From IMG/VR virus record IMGVR_UViG_3300045988_019467: 43,946 bases of DNA; one strand, 5' to 3'. Positions within the stretch are counted from its first letter, which is position 1. Every line of letters begins with the position of its first letter. The notes below the pieces were generated by a model, which saw only the letters and a list, made by a program, of their open reading frames with translations, was not told the DNA's origin and did no database searches. This DNA comes from a virus (lineage: Duplodnaviria > Heunggongvirae > Uroviricota > Caudoviricetes). Below, piece after piece: positions 4,606 to 37,226 of this stretch. The translations under genes were made by a program, and so were the position numbers.

Positions 4606-4608
4606 TAT

Positions 4609-4629
4609 AAGGCCCCTTAACGGGGCCTT
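4609..4629. terminator. bidirectional intrinsic terminator hairpin (AAGGCCCC-TTAAC-GGGGCCTT)
   Basis: GC stem followed by TTAGTTTTATTT; between convergent genes 4147..4605 (+) and 4634..5155 (-); same stem sequence as 2655, 12429 and 24233. Confidence 0.6.
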
Positions 4630-4633
4630 AGTT

Positions 4634-5155
4634 TTATTTAAATCGCGCAGGCATTAACACCATAAAGGCCGTGTTTGAAAATGATATTTTGCATCCTCTG
4701 GTTTGGTCCTGGAAATCGAAACGAGAAATTTCATTTTTGTACGCCTTAGAAATCTTGTACGCGTCTGCCAAATAACGCAGAGTGAACCCTATACTATCGA
4801 CAACACCCGGTGTGATGTGCGCCACGCGTTTCCAGTCAGGAAAGTTTCCTTCTACAACATCTACCGGAAGTGTACATATAAGCGCGCGACTATCGTCATA
4901 GAAAGAAACACTGCCGTTGTCGTGGTCTACCTCTGCGTAGTTAAATTTAGAAGGCTCTCTCCCTTTGATATCAATGAGAACCCCTTTCTCAACGTTTGTC
5001 TTCACATTGTCGCAGAACAATCTATGCCCATTCGTAGACACTATCAACCCCTCAGGTTCTATGTAAAAAGCGTTCAAATAGTAGCGCACATCGTTTTTAG
5101 CCCTGCAGATTTTCGCCCCTACATACGCAGGGAAAGTAATTACCGTAGTAACCAT
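4634..5155 (-). CDS. hypothetical protein (moron, unknown function)
   Basis: 173-aa minus-strand ORF with RBS AGGAGATG before ATG 5155; own promoter-like element and terminator; no motif recognised. Confidence 0.55.
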   Translation of the reverse strand: MVTTVITFPAYVGAKICRAKNDVRYYLNAFYIEPEGLIVSTNGHRLFCDNVKTNVEKGVLIDIKGREPSKFNYAEVDHDNGSVSFYDDSRALICTLPVDVVEGNFPDWKRVAHITPGVVDSIGFTLRYLADAYKISKAYKNEISRFDFQDQTRGCKISFSNTAFMVLMPARFK

Positions 5156-5179
5156 TTCTCATCTCCTGTTTAAGTTAAC

Positions 5180-5211
5180 TGAATAGTACCCTATTATATT
5201 GGAGTATGCAA
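5180..5211 (-). promoter_or_regulatory. class-1 promoter-like element, copy 2 (on minus strand: TTGCAT-N7-TATAAT-AGGGTACTATTCA)
   Basis: Same motif as 3025..3056; TATAAT on the minus strand about 40 nt upstream of ATG 5155. Confidence 0.5.
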
Positions 5212-5263
5212 ACTATTTGTTTACGCATTCCAGTTATTACACTCAATTGTAAATGTTGGAATA

Positions 5264-5306
5264 AACTATTCGAATAGTTGACTTTTCACTAAAAATATGC
5301 TAAGCT
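5264..5306 (+). promoter_or_regulatory. 16-bp perfect palindrome AACTATTCGAATAGTT overlapping a sigma70-like promoter (TTGACT-17-TAAGCT)
   Basis: Perfect palindrome at 5264..5279 built from the same CTATTC/GAATAG half-sites as the repeated operator; TTGACT at 5278..5283 and TAAGCT at 5301..5306. Confidence 0.35.
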
Positions 5307-5487
5307 CCACCTGAGCTTGTGAAGTATGAACAAGCGACCGCGTCGCGGGCAGGTAACGGAGCTGGACGTAAGTCCTGAGTGTAGTTACGCTGACGCGTCC
5401 GGAAGGGCCATACTCTATTGCTTGTGTAAAAAAGTAACTGATTTACTGAGATTACGCCGTTTCTGTGTTTAAATGATAAGGACTAGC

Positions 5488-5512
5488 GCCCCGCTTTAAG
5501 GCGGGGCTTTAC
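5488..5512 (+). terminator. intrinsic terminator or attenuator hairpin just upstream of the spanin genes
   Basis: GCCCCGC-TTTAAG-GCGGGGC stem-loop followed by TTTACTT; lies 20 nt before the i-spanin RBS. Confidence 0.4.
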
Positions 5513-5531
5513 TTATCGAGAAAGGAGAAAC

Positions 5532-5918
5532 ATGAATCTTAAAGCAACTGTCGTAGCGGGAGCATGTTTCATCATCCTGGCTTACGCACACGGCATCTAC
5601 CAGTACCACAGCGGCTGGAACGAAGGCCGGGCGAATCTCGTTTCGCAGCAACAGCAGAAAGCACAGGCTGAGTTAGCGAAGAAAACACAACGGCAGCAGC
5701 AAGATGAATCGAAGGCCGCAGCCGCCGACAACGAAGGCAAGACGAAATCAGAGGTGATTACCCGTGAAGTCGTTAAGTACATTAAAACGCCTGGCCGCAG
5801 CGTGTGCACTTTCGACGATGCTCGCGTCCTGCTCAAGTCCCGCGCCGTCGCAAACGCCAATTCCATCCCCGGATACGACAATGATGCAGCCTCCGTGCAA
5901 ACTGGCGCCGCCAAGTAG
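5532..5918 (+). CDS. i-spanin (Rz-like inner-membrane spanin)
   Basis: N-terminal transmembrane helix (VVAGACFIILAYAHGIY) followed by a Q/A/K-rich coiled-coil-like region; an o-spanin-like lipoprotein ORF overlaps its 3' end in another frame; RBS AAAGGAGA. Confidence 0.65.
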   Translation: MNLKATVVAGACFIILAYAHGIYQYHSGWNEGRANLVSQQQQKAQAELAKKTQRQQQDESKAAAADNEGKTKSEVITREVVKYIKTPGRSVCTFDDARVLLKSRAVANANSIPGYDNDAASVQTGAAK

Positions 5919-6027: not shown

Positions 6028-6109
6028 TTGCCTTGCATGTTGGAATAATTTATTCTTGACATGTAAATCCGGGTGGCCCGGGTTCCAACGTCCAGGGGAC
6101 ATACTGACT

Positions 6110-7863: not shown

Positions 7864-7879
7864 GGTTAAGCTATAATCG

Positions 7880-7907
7880 AGAGGGACTTCGGTCCCTCTT
7901 TTCATTT
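7880..7907 (+). terminator. intrinsic terminator after the capsid gene
   Basis: AGAGGGAC-TTCG-GTCCCTCT stem-loop followed by TTTCATTT. Confidence 0.55.
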
Positions 7908-15060: not shown

Positions 15061-15092
15061 TGAATAGTACCCTATTATATTGGGGTGTGCAA
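15061..15092 (-). promoter_or_regulatory. class-1 promoter-like element, copy 3 (on minus strand: TTGCAC-N7-TATAAT-AGGGTACTATTCA)
   Basis: Same conserved motif; TATAAT on the minus strand about 40 nt upstream of ATG 15033. Confidence 0.5.
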
Positions 15093-15199
15093 GTAATATG
15101 GTAGAATAATTTTGCGCCTAGTGTCGCACACGAAAAGCGGGTGGTTCCCGTCTGGCGCATTTCCTTTAACCAGTAACCTCTTAACCAAAGGATTAAAGA

Positions 15200-27344: not shown

Positions 27345-27599
27345 TTAGTTAGATAATTCGGCTTGAACTTGCTTAATAAGTTCTCCAGCCGTTGTGAAAT
27401 CTACAGACAGCCCTTTAGCGACGTCTTCCGCAAGCACCTTGCGGCCAACTGACCCGAAACCGAGAATACGGTTTACTTCCGAAACCTTCATAGACCATGA
27501 GTAATTAGCTGACGCTCCTGTGTATTTACAGATACGAACAGATGAATCGATTGAACCCATAACCATGGTGTTTACTGACAGTTGAAGTTCGATAGCCAT
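27345..27599 (-). CDS. hypothetical protein
   Basis: 84-aa ORF with RBS AAGGAA, downstream of class-2 promoter copy 7. Confidence 0.4.
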   Translation of the reverse strand: MAIELQLSVNTMVMGSIDSSVRICKYTGASANYSWSMKVSEVNRILGFGSVGRKVLAEDVAKGLSVDFTTAGELIKQVQAELSN

Positions 27600-27600
27600 T

Positions 27601-27918
27601 TTATAATTCCTTATATTGTTGGGGTATGTGCTTACTATAATAGTTCGCTATTAGGGTGTCAACCTGTTTTATCGAACCAACGACAAAAACATTTGCACCG
27701 CGTTTACGCATACGCTCATGCTCTCGTAACTGGTGGGGGTCTGGCTTCGTGTTTTCGTCTTTCTTAACCTCGACGAACCAGACGATGCTGTAGGGGAGAA
27801 TTACCAGCAGGTCAGGAGCGCCCACTCTATTTTCGTAGGAAAGTTTACGAACGAGGCCCCCCAGGGCCTCGAATCGCTCTTTTGCGTATTTCTGCACGCG
27901 CCCCTCAGGCGTACTCAT
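27601..27918 (-). CDS. VRR-NUC domain nuclease (PD-(D/E)xK fold)
   Basis: PD...(D/E)xK-like signature (GAPDLLVIL ... VEVKK) in an approximately 105-aa protein; start taken at ATG 27918. Confidence 0.55.
   Translation of the reverse strand: MSTPEGRVQKYAKERFEALGGLVRKLSYENRVGAPDLLVILPYSIVWFVEVKKDENTKPDPHQLREHERMRKRGANVFVVGSIKQVDTLIANYYSKHIPQQYKEL
27623..27662 (-). promoter_or_regulatory. class-2 promoter, copy 7 (minus strand: TTGACACC-N12-TATTATAGT), inside the 3' end of the VRR-NUC CDS
   Basis: Minus-strand TTGACA (plus 27657..27662) and TATAGT (plus 27634..27639) with about 18-bp spacer; near-identical elements at 31214..31242 and 34199..34228. Confidence 0.5.
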
Positions 27919-27994
27919 AATACACACCCCTCACGTTTCGTATGTTCAATCCCGCAGCGCGGACAGATTCGACAGTCTTCTTCGTAGAACCAAT

Positions 27995-28132
27995 AAATTT
28001 TCACTCCATCACCCACAGATAAATTGCGATGAACATGCCCAATACAGCAACCATCATGCTGTATTGACTCTCGTGACAGTAGACACCGGCGGCGAATCCC
28101 GCCAGTACCGCAATAATCAGTTTACTTGGCAT
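27995..28132 (-). CDS. small hydrophobic protein (putative, very short)
   Basis: 45-aa ORF with two hydrophobic segments between the DNA polymerase and VRR-NUC genes; too short for confident calling. Confidence 0.2.
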
Positions 28133-30323
28133 AGCGTTTTAACTCCTGACCTTCTGCTACAAGAGGGAACCCTTCAGCCCACTCAGGCAACGCGCACATT
28201 AATTTTTCCAGTTCAGCCACCGTGTACTCGGGGGTGTCCGGAGTTTCACATACCAGTTCATCGTGTACCGAAAGCACGATGGGGTACCCGCCGCCCTCAA
28301 CATTAATCATCGCATATGCGAGTAAATCACGGCACAGCGCCTGAACAATGTTTTCGCAGGCTTTGCCGCCGTGGGTGTACAGGGTAGTCCATTGACGGGT
28401 TAACTGGTTTTCGCCCTGATACTTGATTCGCACATTCGTATTCACCCGTCCATCTTCATCTGTTTCCTTTGTCACACTAACGCCGATTCCCGGATACGAG
28501 AGGACGCGACCTGACGGCAACTCCATGCATAACCACCAACCAGGAACCTTCCTGCCGGATGAATCAAATTCTACCGTACGCCATATGCGGATAGCCCTTC
28601 CCCCCTTCCTGCGCAAGTGTGCTCCCGCCCAAAATTCACGACCAGGATTACGAACAGCGGCTAAAATTCCGTCTTTAAGGTCGCGCCAGAACGCTACTGT
28701 TTCCGGGTGTGACTCGCGCCACATACGCTTGATTGCGTCGCAGGTACGCCACACCTTCTTGTCCAGAATATACGACGGTCGGTCGTCCTTTTCACCAGGA
28801 TGTGGTGGTCGCTTTGCTTCCTGGATACGCGCCCATTCATAACCACGTGCAGTAGCCGCCCATATATGATCAGGGAAAGTCCCGTCCATTGTTTTTGCCA
28901 TCTCAATAAGGTCAAGACCTAAATTTTTAGCGAACGTAACGAACGCTCCGACGCCCCCCTCGTAGCCGAGGCCAAGCTCGCAGGCCTTGCCTATCTGTCT
29001 GATTTCCTTGAAGTTTTTCTTAATATCATCTGGGTCCATGCCGAACATCTTACCCGCGGTTACACAGTAAATATCAAGGCCGGCGCGGAACGTATCGAGC
29101 GCGGTTTCTTCACCGGCTAGCCACGCTAAACCGCGACCTTCGACGTTAGAATAATCGGCAACAACAAACTTATGTCCTGCTTCCGGTATGATGCAGCTAC
29201 GCACTGTCGACGCCGTTAGCTTGGCTACGTCGAAACGGCGATGAGCACGACCCTTAAGTAACGCAGAAATGCCTTTATCCAGTTCATCATCGTGATAGTA
29301 ACCGCGCGCCAGGTTCTGTGGCTGGAAGCCTTTACCTGCCCATCGCAGGGTACGTTTTGCTCCGCCGTACTGTAAGCAACCGCGGCGTCGGTCGTCCGAA
29401 GAGCGACCCAACAGCAGCGGGTTATATTTCGTTGATGCGGTGGACGCAGCCCCGAGGCGCATTTCGATAATCGCGCGGGCGTCGTCCGGTAAATCGTCGT
29501 TGGCAAGCAGGTCGTTAAGCGTTGACTTCTGCGCGTTGTGGATTCGGTGTGCTGGTGCGAGTTCCCGCAAAATAGGCAGAAAGTCCTTTCCAGTAAGCGA
29601 GCCGCCGTATTTGCGCTGTGCTTCTTCCTGTAACTGCGCTTTGTGTTTCTCCACGGCTTCAATCGCGGCTTCCGCCAGTGCGACGTCAACCTTAAAGCCT
29701 CGGTCGTTGATTAACTGGTCCAGTTCCAGCACACGGTCCTCAAACTCGGAGTTACCCCAACGCGGCAGCTTATGGAAGACTTCACGCATTGCGGTGATGT
29801 CGCTAACGGCGTACTTGATGAACAGCGCCCACTCGTCTGGGTGCGTTTCTGCGGTGTAACGGCGGATTTTGTAGTTCTTCGGTGTTGGTTTAGAGAAACG
29901 CTGAATCAGCGCCTTACCGCGTTTGTCTTTTGCATTGTCCGCGGATACGCCAAGCACTTCGCACAAGGCATCAAGAGAACCCGGCAGCGCGTGACGAAAC
30001 GCCCAAATCATCGTATCAATGGTGTTGCTCACCGGAATATCAAAGTCCCAACAGTGCTTCATGATGAGCCTGTCGAACATTGATCCGTTGTGCCACACCA
30101 TCTTGATACGGCTGTTCGGCTTAACCAGGCGGCGTAGAGCGCGGTGCAAATCCCCCGGCATGTCGCTGCCATCGGTGCAATCCCACACCTGCACAGGCTC
30201 GTCATCGAAAGCATAGGTACAGATTAGCACTTCGGTAGTTGGGTGTTCTGCGTAAGCATAGGAACCGACTTTCTTTAAATCGGCTTCGGAGAATGTTTCA
30301 AAGTCCAGGTATAAGTAGCTCAT
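28122..30323 (-). CDS. DNA polymerase, family A (Pol I-like) with N-terminal 3'-5' exonuclease domain
   Basis: N-terminal exonuclease motif LYLDFETFS (DxE); C-terminal polymerase motif C (VLSVHDELVCE); 733 aa. Confidence 0.8.
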   Translation of the reverse strand: MSYLYLDFETFSEADLKKVGSYAYAEHPTTEVLICTYAFDDEPVQVWDCTDGSDMPGDLHRALRRLVKPNSRIKMVWHNGSMFDRLIMKHCWDFDIPVSNTIDTMIWAFRHALPGSLDALCEVLGVSADNAKDKRGKALIQRFSKPTPKNYKIRRYTAETHPDEWALFIKYAVSDITAMREVFHKLPRWGNSEFEDRVLELDQLINDRGFKVDVALAEAAIEAVEKHKAQLQEEAQRKYGGSLTGKDFLPILRELAPAHRIHNAQKSTLNDLLANDDLPDDARAIIEMRLGAASTASTKYNPLLLGRSSDDRRRGCLQYGGAKRTLRWAGKGFQPQNLARGYYHDDELDKGISALLKGRAHRRFDVAKLTASTVRSCIIPEAGHKFVVADYSNVEGRGLAWLAGEETALDTFRAGLDIYCVTAGKMFGMDPDDIKKNFKEIRQIGKACELGLGYEGGVGAFVTFAKNLGLDLIEMAKTMDGTFPDHIWAATARGYEWARIQEAKRPPHPGEKDDRPSYILDKKVWRTCDAIKRMWRESHPETVAFWRDLKDGILAAVRNPGREFWAGAHLRRKGGRAIRIWRTVEFDSSGRKVPGWWLCMELPSGRVLSYPGIGVSVTKETDEDGRVNTNVRIKYQGENQLTRQWTTLYTHGGKACENIVQALCRDLLAYAMINVEGGGYPIVLSVHDELVCETPDTPEYTVAELEKLMCALPEWAEGFPLVAEGQELKRYAK

Positions 30324-34292: not shown

Positions 34293-34508
34293 ATGCAACC
34301 ATCTGAACTAGGCATCCGTGTAGAACAACGCCGTAAAGAACTCGGTATCTCCCAGCGCCGTCTGGCTGTCCTGACCGGCGTTTCTCAGGGCGCGATTAAC
34401 CAACTGGCACTTGGGGTAACTCAGGACGTCCGCCCGGCGACGCTGTTTAAACTGGCGGAAGTGCTGGAAGTAGACGCTAAGTGGCTGGCGTTCGGTGAAG
34501 GGGCTTAA
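34293..34508 (+). CDS. XRE-family HTH transcriptional regulator (Cro/CI-like)
   Basis: Classic HTH_XRE pattern (ELGISQRRLAVLTGVSQGAINQLALG); RBS AAGGAG; transcribed opposite to the surrounding replication operon. Confidence 0.7.
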   Translation: MQPSELGIRVEQRRKELGISQRRLAVLTGVSQGAINQLALGVTQDVRPATLFKLAEVLEVDAKWLAFGEGA

Positions 34509-36825: not shown

Positions 36826-37059
36826 TTATTCCAGGTCTTCTAAAGTAGCGGTCATTCCGCGAACTTCGGCAACGGCACTATATTTCCCGCCAACATTTTT
36901 CACGACACCGGATTTAACCAGTACACGTAACGACCCTTCAATAATGGCTGAACTATAGTACTTAAAATAACTACGGCGCAAGTCCATAACGCTGCACGAC
37001 CTTTTTTTACGGGTTAATGAAACGACCGCCGTAAATACGCGTGACTGGAACTCTGTCAT
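36826..37059 (-). CDS. hypothetical protein (C-terminal ...TLEDLE)
   Basis: 77-aa ORF; ATG overlaps the stop of the upstream gene (ATGA). Confidence 0.4.
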   Translation of the reverse strand: MTEFQSRVFTAVVSLTRKKRSCSVMDLRRSYFKYYSSAIIEGSLRVLVKSGVVKNVGGKYSAVAEVRGMTATLEDLE

Positions 37060-37226
37060 TTCACATTCTCCTTAATCCAGGCTTCCACTTTCTCCGGGTC
37101 AAACGTACCGGGCTGACGACGACCCATAATACGGATACAGCAATCAGGGAACTTCCCACTCTTTAACCAGTTATTCAGCGTGCGACGAGTAACCCCGATA
37201 CGCTCAGCTACTTCATTCTGCGTCAT
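37056..37226 (-). CDS. small HTH DNA-binding protein (AlpA/excisionase-like fold, putative regulator)
   Basis: 56-aa ORF with HTH-like segment (QNEVAERIGVTRRTLNNWLKSGKFP). Confidence 0.4.
   Translation of the reverse strand: MTQNEVAERIGVTRRTLNNWLKSGKFPDCCIRIMGRRQPGTFDPEKVEAWIKENVK

Follow-up and report, generated by a model that had tools for sequence, protein, structure and literature searches.

A stretch of some 200 nucleotides just upstream of the spanin genes of a tailed phage poses a simple question: is it a small RNA, a riboswitch-like attenuator for the spanin genes or a short peptide gene? All three had been left open by a sequence-only reading of positions 5307-5512 of the window, by which is meant the entire 43,946-nucleotide stretch of DNA analysed here (IMG/VR record IMGVR_UViG_3300045988_019467). 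As judged from comparison with related sequences, the stretch is a folded non-coding RNA and holds no small protein gene. The features on which this view is based are collected in Table 1.

Table 1. Features of the spanin leader and its surroundings (positions in the window)
Feature	Position	Strand	Basis
Operator-like repeats ATTCCAGTTATTAC (5227-5240) and palindrome GGAATA-AAC-TATTC (5258-5271)	5227..5271	.	location upstream of the promoter
Predicted sigma-70-type promoter	5278..5306	+	sequence reading; layout conserved in three leader types
P0 hairpin, GCUUGU / loop GAAGUAUGA / ACAAGC	5315..5335	+	present in the MFE fold; arms replaced by complementary arms elsewhere
Spurious 48-codon ORF (36 codons in most relatives)	5326..5472	+	disrupted in relatives; no codon-position pattern
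Core hairpin, 65 nt, 24 bp	5338..5402	+	folding, covariation, strand asymmetry, covariance model R1
Purine-rich CGGAAGGGCC, 3′ foot of core	5400..5409	+	invariance in the alignment
AU-rich linker, ~64 nt, 31% GC	5410..5473	+	alignments, GC content
Extended stem-loop, ~18 bp	5474..5518	+	terminator-like site, fold z, compensatory changes
Shine-Dalgarno sequence AGGAG	5523-5527	+	ORF list and annotation of relatives
i-spanin gene, first gene served by the leader	ATG 5532, end 5918	+	ORF list and annotation of relatives

Genomic setting and promoter

The window represents a Kagunavirus-like phage (Guernseyvirinae), and the 1.5 kb around the leader are 92-95% identical to Escherichia Kagunavirus phages, the Salmonella Jersey-like phages being more distant. 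The leader is flanked by a clamp-like ORF on the minus strand (4634-5155) and by the i-spanin gene, in which the o-spanin gene is embedded; the scaffold gene and then the major capsid gene follow downstream. It occupies the point at which rightward late transcription restarts after a terminator (4608-4630) and a variable minus-strand insert. Directly 3′ of the major capsid gene, within the late operon, a strong terminator-like hairpin of 9 pairs followed by TTCATTTACT is found on the plus strand (7879-7900).

The segment between the terminator, which follows a Hoc-like gene, and the leader promoter (4606-5226) is a hot spot of variable cargo. Here it is occupied by an ORF of 173 aa whose similarity to beta-clamps is faint (Pfam E = 0.016, short of the cut-off), in relatives by other small ORFs or by none, with an HNH endonuclease nearby in some of them. 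A 23-nt repeat, TGAATAGTACCCTATTATATTGG, is located at 5180-5202 and again at 15061-15083, in each case beside the start of a minus-strand cassette. Since TATAAT is found on its minus strand, preceded at a distance of 17 nt by a TTTGCA/TTGCAT-like box, the repeat is probably a shared promoter of the minus-strand cargo genes. Neither tRNA nor tmRNA was detected by ARAGORN in the window or in nine relatives, and the "tRNA-Ser" of two Jersey records lies on the opposite strand, over the upstream terminator and outside the leader.

The promoter that had been proposed (TTGACT-17-TAAGCT) is present, about 2 nt away from where it had been placed, with its -35 hexamer at 5278-5283, a 17-nt spacer and the -10 hexamer at 5301-5306, and it possesses in addition an extended -10 TG (5298-5299). 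A consensus promoter scan does not call it, because TAAGCT fits only three of the six positions of the -10 element. The layout of -35 box, 17 nt, TGn and TA..CT is nevertheless kept in the Jersey type (T[T/A]GACT-17-TGt-TACGCT) and in the Cornellvirus type (TGGACT-17-TGa-TAACCT), and in phage phi135 a promoter is annotated at the equivalent place. From the position of the -10 element, transcription is predicted to start at G5313 or A5314.

Upstream of the promoter, the pattern GGAATAANNTATTC is matched exactly at just two places in the window, 5258 and 6042, and both times a TTGAC box follows closely; equivalent palindromes are found at the same place in the Jersey type (TGAATACTTTATTCA) and the Cornellvirus type (GGAATAAATTATTCC). 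The GGAATA-N3-TATTC palindrome is probably an operator for some phage regulator. Its second copy (6042-6055) precedes the scaffold gene and is not followed by a recognisable -10 element; with this promoter-like box (6042-6061), the downstream head genes could be independent of the leader. Candidate regulators for the palindromes are a 56-aa protein of the HTH_17 type (excisionase/MerR-like; 37056-37226, minus strand) and a 71-aa Cro/C1-type HTH protein (34293-34508, plus strand). These two (HTH_17 and HTH_3, respectively) gave the only matches in a Pfam/PHROG scan of candidate regulators and early-region proteins, and no PDB relative was found.

Fold of the RNA and fate of the reading frame

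The predicted transcript begins with the hairpin P0, whose 6 bp start 1-2 nt after the predicted 5′ end. Its arms differ between phages and still pair with each other, as GCUUGUG/CGCAAGC in the leader type L026 and as (U)ACGCU-UUC-AGCGU(A) in the Jersey type, with a U.G variant in L011 and L037. The core hairpin consists of P1 (CCG/CGG), P2, P3, a 2-bp helix with a 2-nt bulge and P4, which is capped by GUAA (5368-5371). Its MFE of -29.5 kcal/mol accounts for 73% of the ensemble, with z = -2.24; for P0 and core together z is -2.99, and 2 of 200 shuffles fold as well. Taken alone, the whole 209 nt do not fold significantly (z = -1.45), and the case for a structured leader rests on covariation.

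When the five types (main Kaguna, L004, L020, L026/L183 and Jersey) are folded independently, the same core architecture is obtained for each. In the alignment of 20 distinct sequences, which is model-guided and hence fitted to the model, 97.8% of the cells pair and 11 of the 24 core pairs are changed on both sides, these changes tracing to about five or six sequence types. None of 500 shuffles reaches any of the five measures of covariation employed, and sliding the partners by 1-3 columns as a control lowers core pairing to 24-42%. In L026 the fold is kept at a leader identity of 82%, compared to 92-97% for the flanking genes. Loops and the P2/P3 internal loop are not conserved. Four pairs of the core are mostly G.U, and its minus strand folds 8 kcal/mol worse in the window and 4 kcal/mol worse in the Jersey type; the structure therefore belongs to the plus-strand transcript. 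The covariation, an analysis of which across related phages had been proposed as a check, supports a structured, promoter-proximal regulatory leader.

A long-range pairing of the P0 loop with CAUACU (5409-5414) in the Kaguna type was considered and rejected, as the partner is hypervariable and compensation is not observed. Shortly 3′ of the core, the sequence of the P0 5′ arm and loop (GCUUGUG..AAGUA) is found a second time. This direct repeat (5315-5326 and 5420-5436) evolves in concert: the Jersey type repeats GCUUUCAG instead, and L026 an CUUGUGAGUUAUC-like sequence.

At the foot of the core, the heptamer CGGAAGG is invariant in all 39 aligned leaders, and even the otherwise rearranged leader of the Cornellvirus type keeps the purine motif as ACCGCGCGGAAGGGUC. 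Invariant internal-loop residues together with CGGAAGGG would suggest a bound factor, which may be a protein, RNase III or the polymerase. The linker that follows comprises 6-8 hypervariable nucleotides (5410-5415), and the conserved segments UAUUGCUU (5416-5423) and AGAUUACGCCG (5449-5459), the latter with the general form AGAUU(A)CGCCG in the alignments. Of a candidate weak hairpin within it, AGUAA/UUACU (5433-5447), the variants are in part wobble-compatible and in part disruptive.

Two statements about the composition of the stretch have to be corrected. It had been called GC-rich; its overall GC content is 50.5% compared to 50.7% for the window, and only the structured 5′ half (5313-5409) is GC-rich, at 60-65%, as opposed to the AU-rich linker. 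The segment said to occur twice, GACGCGTC, is found once (5392). CGCGTC does occur twice (5339 and 5394), the copies forming opposite strands of the basal helix in a single long hairpin.

As had been stated, ORFs of 60 aa or more are absent: the sole plus-strand ORF, formerly given as 49 codons at 5328..5477, encodes 48 aa and has the limits listed in Table 1. Records of relatives show at this place a "hypothetical protein" of 36-39 codons, and a single additional A in its A-run alone accounts for the greater length of the window's ORF (48 versus 36 codons). In many of the 125 related loci collected from IMG/VR and metagenomes, the ORF is found cut to 9 or 17 codons, frameshifted to unrelated 34 aa, or devoid of its ATG, which is missing in the L026 type and in all Jersey-type loci; at least five related lineages have destroyed it, so that it does not form a conserved ORF. 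The 20 distinct Kaguna-type variants are distributed over codon positions 1, 2 and 3 as 10, 6 and 4, with 16 non-synonymous versus 4 synonymous changes, and 15 of the 20 are found outside the core hairpin, despite its share of 59% of the ORF. The idea of a short peptide gene is thus rejected, the ORF being broken in variants that keep the RNA structure and showing no codon pattern. Of the two kinds of constraint which had been named beforehand as decisive, structure-level and codon-level, the former is observed.

The 3′ stem-loop, the sister types and the favoured reading

The hairpin that had been taken for a terminator (5488-5507; 8 pairs, 7 of them G-C, followed by TTTACTTAT) is indeed the top-ranked terminator-like site of the region. 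This "terminator", i.e. the upper GC stem with UUUACUUAU, is the top of the extended stem-loop, which is composed of a lower stem (UGAUAAG/CUUAUCG), a middle stem (UAG/UUA) and the upper stem with its loop UUAA: the sequence 3′ of the GC stem, UUUACUUAUCG, pairs with the upstream UGAUAAG..UAG. The extended hairpin has a fold z of -3.5, which is matched by 1 of 200 shuffles. Compensatory changes occur in the upper stem (C-G to G-C in 8 sequences, also U-A and A-U variants), and the lower stem is formed from other sequences in the Jersey type (UAUACG/CGUAUA), in the Cornellvirus type and in L331 (GUAAUGGUG/CACUGUUAC). The extended stem-loop ends 4 nt before the ribosome-binding site of the spanin gene.

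The nucleotides after the GC stem, including the supposed U-tract, thus lie paired within the conserved lower stem. Among the first 8 of them, five are U in the Kaguna type, three in the Jersey type (UUAGCGUA) and three in the Cornellvirus type (UGUUACGA), and a passable U-tract is seen only in the Kaguna type, whereas the stem that consumes it is kept in every type. As the lower stem requires RNA past the termination point, selection acts on the read-through transcript, that is, on the spanin mRNA. Together with the degenerate U-tracts of the sister types, the conserved lower stem makes a cis-acting 5′ UTR more likely than a terminated sRNA.

The covariance model R1 detects the leader exactly once in the window and exactly once in the complete genome of a relative. 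Matches to the leader by blastn in phage records number 181 for the Kaguna type, 269 for the Jersey type and 12-37 for the Cornellvirus type, and the leader of ~215 nt is restricted to the Guernseyvirinae, i.e. to phages of E. coli and Salmonella. A host origin or mimicry of host RNA is rejected, since blastn yields no match in 5,426 complete E. coli genomes. Copies in bacterial chromosomes were also considered: the 43 pattern matches in GTDB come from taxa that are unrelated and for the most part environmental, and the 125 leader-like loci include none of them. Rfam 15, applied to the whole window at gathering threshold, leaves the leader unmatched and reports only int-alpA at 15111-15175.

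The leader evolves at about the rate of its neighbours, and faster in L026. From the operator-like repeats (5227) to the spanin ATG it moves as a unit in mosaics, in which the spanin is 75-82% identical. The Cornellvirus type rearranges the core, where ACCGCG and CGGAAGGG are kept but adjacent and a different 5′ hairpin is capped by a GNRA loop; the L331 type has a simplified P2-P4 hairpin. Some relatives replace the leader entirely. It is consequently dispensable for the spanin as such. Several sister loci (L316, L322 and L323 of the Cornellvirus type, L331, L305/L311/L320 and L318/L329/L330) have rearranged or unrelated leaders before the same spanin, among them the Cornellvirus type with ACCGCGCGGAAGGG and a type with TTGCGAGT repeats.

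On balance we favour a non-coding, cis-acting 5′ leader (~215 nt) of the spanin/late mRNA that would both damp and stabilise expression, because selection acts on the read-through mRNA and the U-tracts of the sister types are degenerate. In line with such a leader, relatives that carry a full holin-endolysin-spanin cassette at this place also have it behind a long structured, hairpin-rich leader, albeit another one. Rightward late transcription would start at the promoter and continue into the spanin genes, and the nascent RNA would form the 5′-terminal P0 and the 65-nt irregular hairpin, by which the message is capped. There would follow the single-stranded, conserved CGGAAGGG motif, the AU-rich linker and the second long stem-loop, abutting the ribosome-binding site. 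In the Kaguna type, the upper GC stem and UUUACUU may halt a fraction of the polymerases, leaving an RNA of ~200 nt as a by-product. In the read-through RNA, the 18-bp stem and the 5′ hairpins may tune stability and translation of a spanin/late mRNA made from a near-consensus promoter. Hairpins that act as 5′-terminal stabilisers or are processed by RNase III are known from the ompA 5′ UTR and the T7 R sites. The leader resembles these in that its first hairpin begins 1-2 nt after the predicted 5′ end and that an AU-rich single strand separates two irregular stems of considerable length (24 and ~18 bp); in sequence it is unrelated to them.

The same RNA could also act in trans, as a stand-alone sRNA of ~200 nt that ends at the GC hairpin and whose linker pairs with host or phage mRNAs, the spanin being expressed by leak-through. 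The Kaguna type does combine a near-consensus promoter with a stable hairpin followed by UUUACUU, and 64 nt of single-stranded AU-rich RNA with conserved blocks lie between structured ends. We nonetheless regard this as unlikely: in the Jersey and Cornellvirus types the U-tract is degenerate and the stem that pairs it is conserved, the best duplex of the linker with 51 phage translation-initiation regions is no better than with shuffled linkers (half of which do at least as well), and no similarity exists in E. coli genomes.

Comparison with known leaders

The put RNAs of phage HK022 cause a protein-independent read-through of downstream terminators, which is abolished by mutations in the zinc-binding domain of the RNAP beta′ subunit. 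They are ~70 nt in length, comprise two stem-loops and are located just downstream of PL (PMC9378689). As in HK022, a promoter-proximal RNA with two stem-loops is found here in a phage operon containing terminators, and structure is conserved rather than a protein (PMC9378689). A self-acting, processive antiterminator of this kind, whose two stem-loops would stay on the polymerase and let it pass 5488-5507 as well as later terminators (7879-7900), has therefore to be considered, and we rate it as rather improbable. P0 and core (88 nt) directly follow the sigma-70 promoter and head a long late operon with internal terminators, RNA structure and not sequence is what is conserved, and among the candidate proteins scanned a Q-like protein was not found. 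The two hairpins, at about +2 to +90 of the transcript when counted from the predicted start, are however unlike put in shape: put is a V-shaped pair with a triplex, contrary to the short hairpin and 65-nt irregular hairpin seen here (PMC9378689). Moreover, the loops and the P2/P3 internal loop vary, directly after the leader a real terminator is missing in the sister lineages, and there is a single copy per genome as opposed to the two of HK022 (putL and putR). A search of the HK022 immunity region (27500-30200), which covers PL and PR, with model R1 and filters off gives a best E of 3 (5 bits) and hence no detectable similarity to put; the region has no Rfam matches either, because Rfam contains no put model.

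At the next restart of the operon (~15.1 kb) a different RNA motif is present, which also speaks against a put-like leader. It is the int-alpA match (RF02996; plus strand, 36.6 bits versus a gathering threshold of 35.8), which precedes the tail assembly chaperone gene (ATG 15200) as part of its 5′ UTR. Within the same genome, this is another 5′ UTR at which rightward late transcription restarts after a minus-strand cassette. The motif has a weak U-run behind its outer GC stem; its sequence and fold are unrelated to those of the spanin leader. The leader hairpins might constitute a further class of put-like antiterminator or sensor RNA, structurally unrelated to the first and gating the lysis and head genes, a proposal to which we assign only a small chance of being correct. 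If true, a put-like leader would be an RNA substitute for the lambdoid Q protein in the virulent Guernseyvirinae.

In the late leader of phage lambda (PR′ - 6S RNA - tR′), a constitutive-looking sigma-70 promoter is followed by a ~200-nt untranslated leader, a terminator, and the lysis and then the head genes. The order of elements at the present locus is the same, with a terminator-like hairpin in the place of tR′; of the lysis genes only the spanins are present, and relatives carry holin, endolysin and spanin. It would accordingly be conceivable that a Q- or AlpA-like protein loads at the promoter and that the RNA fold is incidental. The arrangement typical of Q/AlpA-type leaders, a promoter and then an intrinsic terminator before the regulated genes, is found here, the terminator being weak in sister types; in addition, conserved palindromes flank the promoter, and in the Jersey type the -10 hexamer TACGCT is exactly repeated 3 nt downstream, Q and AlpA requiring a -10-like pause element of this sort (PMC9371919). 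In contrast to lambda, no convincing pause element is found in the present lineage, where the repeat reads TGAGCT (5312-5317) and the critical A2 is missing. No member of the Q/AlpA family was recognised by Pfam/PHROG among seven small or candidate proteins (56-183 aa), Q-like proteins being very diverse. A link to AlpA through the 56-aa HTH protein was rejected, as this is a generic HTH_17 match without PDB relative and AlpA is much larger. Again in contrast to lambda, the RNA fold itself is under selection, and its compensatory changes would be left unexplained by a protein acting at the promoter. Such a mechanism is rated as distinctly improbable.

A ligand-sensing riboswitch or attenuator that times spanin expression appears very improbable. 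The conserved structured domain, with invariant unpaired nucleotides and situated upstream of a terminator-like hairpin, would be in keeping with such an element, but it is a single hairpin domain without a multi-helix pocket, and the terminator is not conserved as a terminator. Rfam families are not matched even at E up to 10: for the region 5150-5560 this search returns three weak GC-hairpin matches (10-15 bits versus thresholds of 35-50), and the Jersey, L026 and L004 leaders yield none at E up to 1. No conserved, mutually exclusive terminator/antiterminator pairing was found, nor did inspection of the alignments reveal a conserved sequence with which the 5′ arm of the GC hairpin could pair. 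The P0 3′ arm can pair with the downstream repeat, the only candidate alternative detected, at a cost of 1.2-1.6 kcal/mol in the Kaguna type and of 4-9 kcal/mol in L026 and Jersey; a two-state switch based on the concerted direct repeat is thus energetically unsupported in two of three lineages.

Hardly any credence can be given to a short peptide gene (the 48/36-codon ORF) or to a leader peptide (mini-ORF GUG UUU AAA UGA, 5465-5476): three lineages do have an open frame over the core, which is annotated in many records, but its start codon sits in the P0 loop without a proper Shine-Dalgarno sequence, start codons vary by lineage, the encoded amino acids bear no relation to each other over the helices, the frame is often shifted or truncated, 16 changes are non-synonymous versus 4 synonymous, and attenuation by the mini-ORF was rejected because its start is lost in the Jersey-type L041 (AUGAUG to AUAAGG).

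In the literature searched, no description of a non-coding RNA at the spanin leader locus was found. The searches on transcripts of Guernseyvirinae, Kagunavirus and Jerseyvirus returned only gene-level RNA-seq and routine predictions of promoters and terminators, the sole RNA-seq study of a Kagunavirus being confined to annotated genes. The leader is a new RNA family, though of a familiar general kind, the structured phage leader, and its natural variation is sufficient to model it. Among known systems, the lambda late leader, HK022 put and the int-alpA motif come nearest to it.

The Guernseyvirinae (Kagunavirus, Jerseyvirus, Cornellvirus) rank with the phages isolated most frequently for therapy and biocontrol of E. 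coli and Salmonella, and the phage collection contains ~450 of their genomes. Nearly all of them either leave the leader unannotated or list it as a "hypothetical protein", and its identification as RNA removes a false gene. At the same time, the leader marks the control region of the late/lysis transcription unit in this subfamily. If the RNA acts on the polymerase or on the fate of the mRNA, it would provide a compact regulatory part that is compatible with the host RNAP, and phages Bas70-76 of the BASEL collection, which grow on E. coli K-12, offer a direct experimental setting for it.
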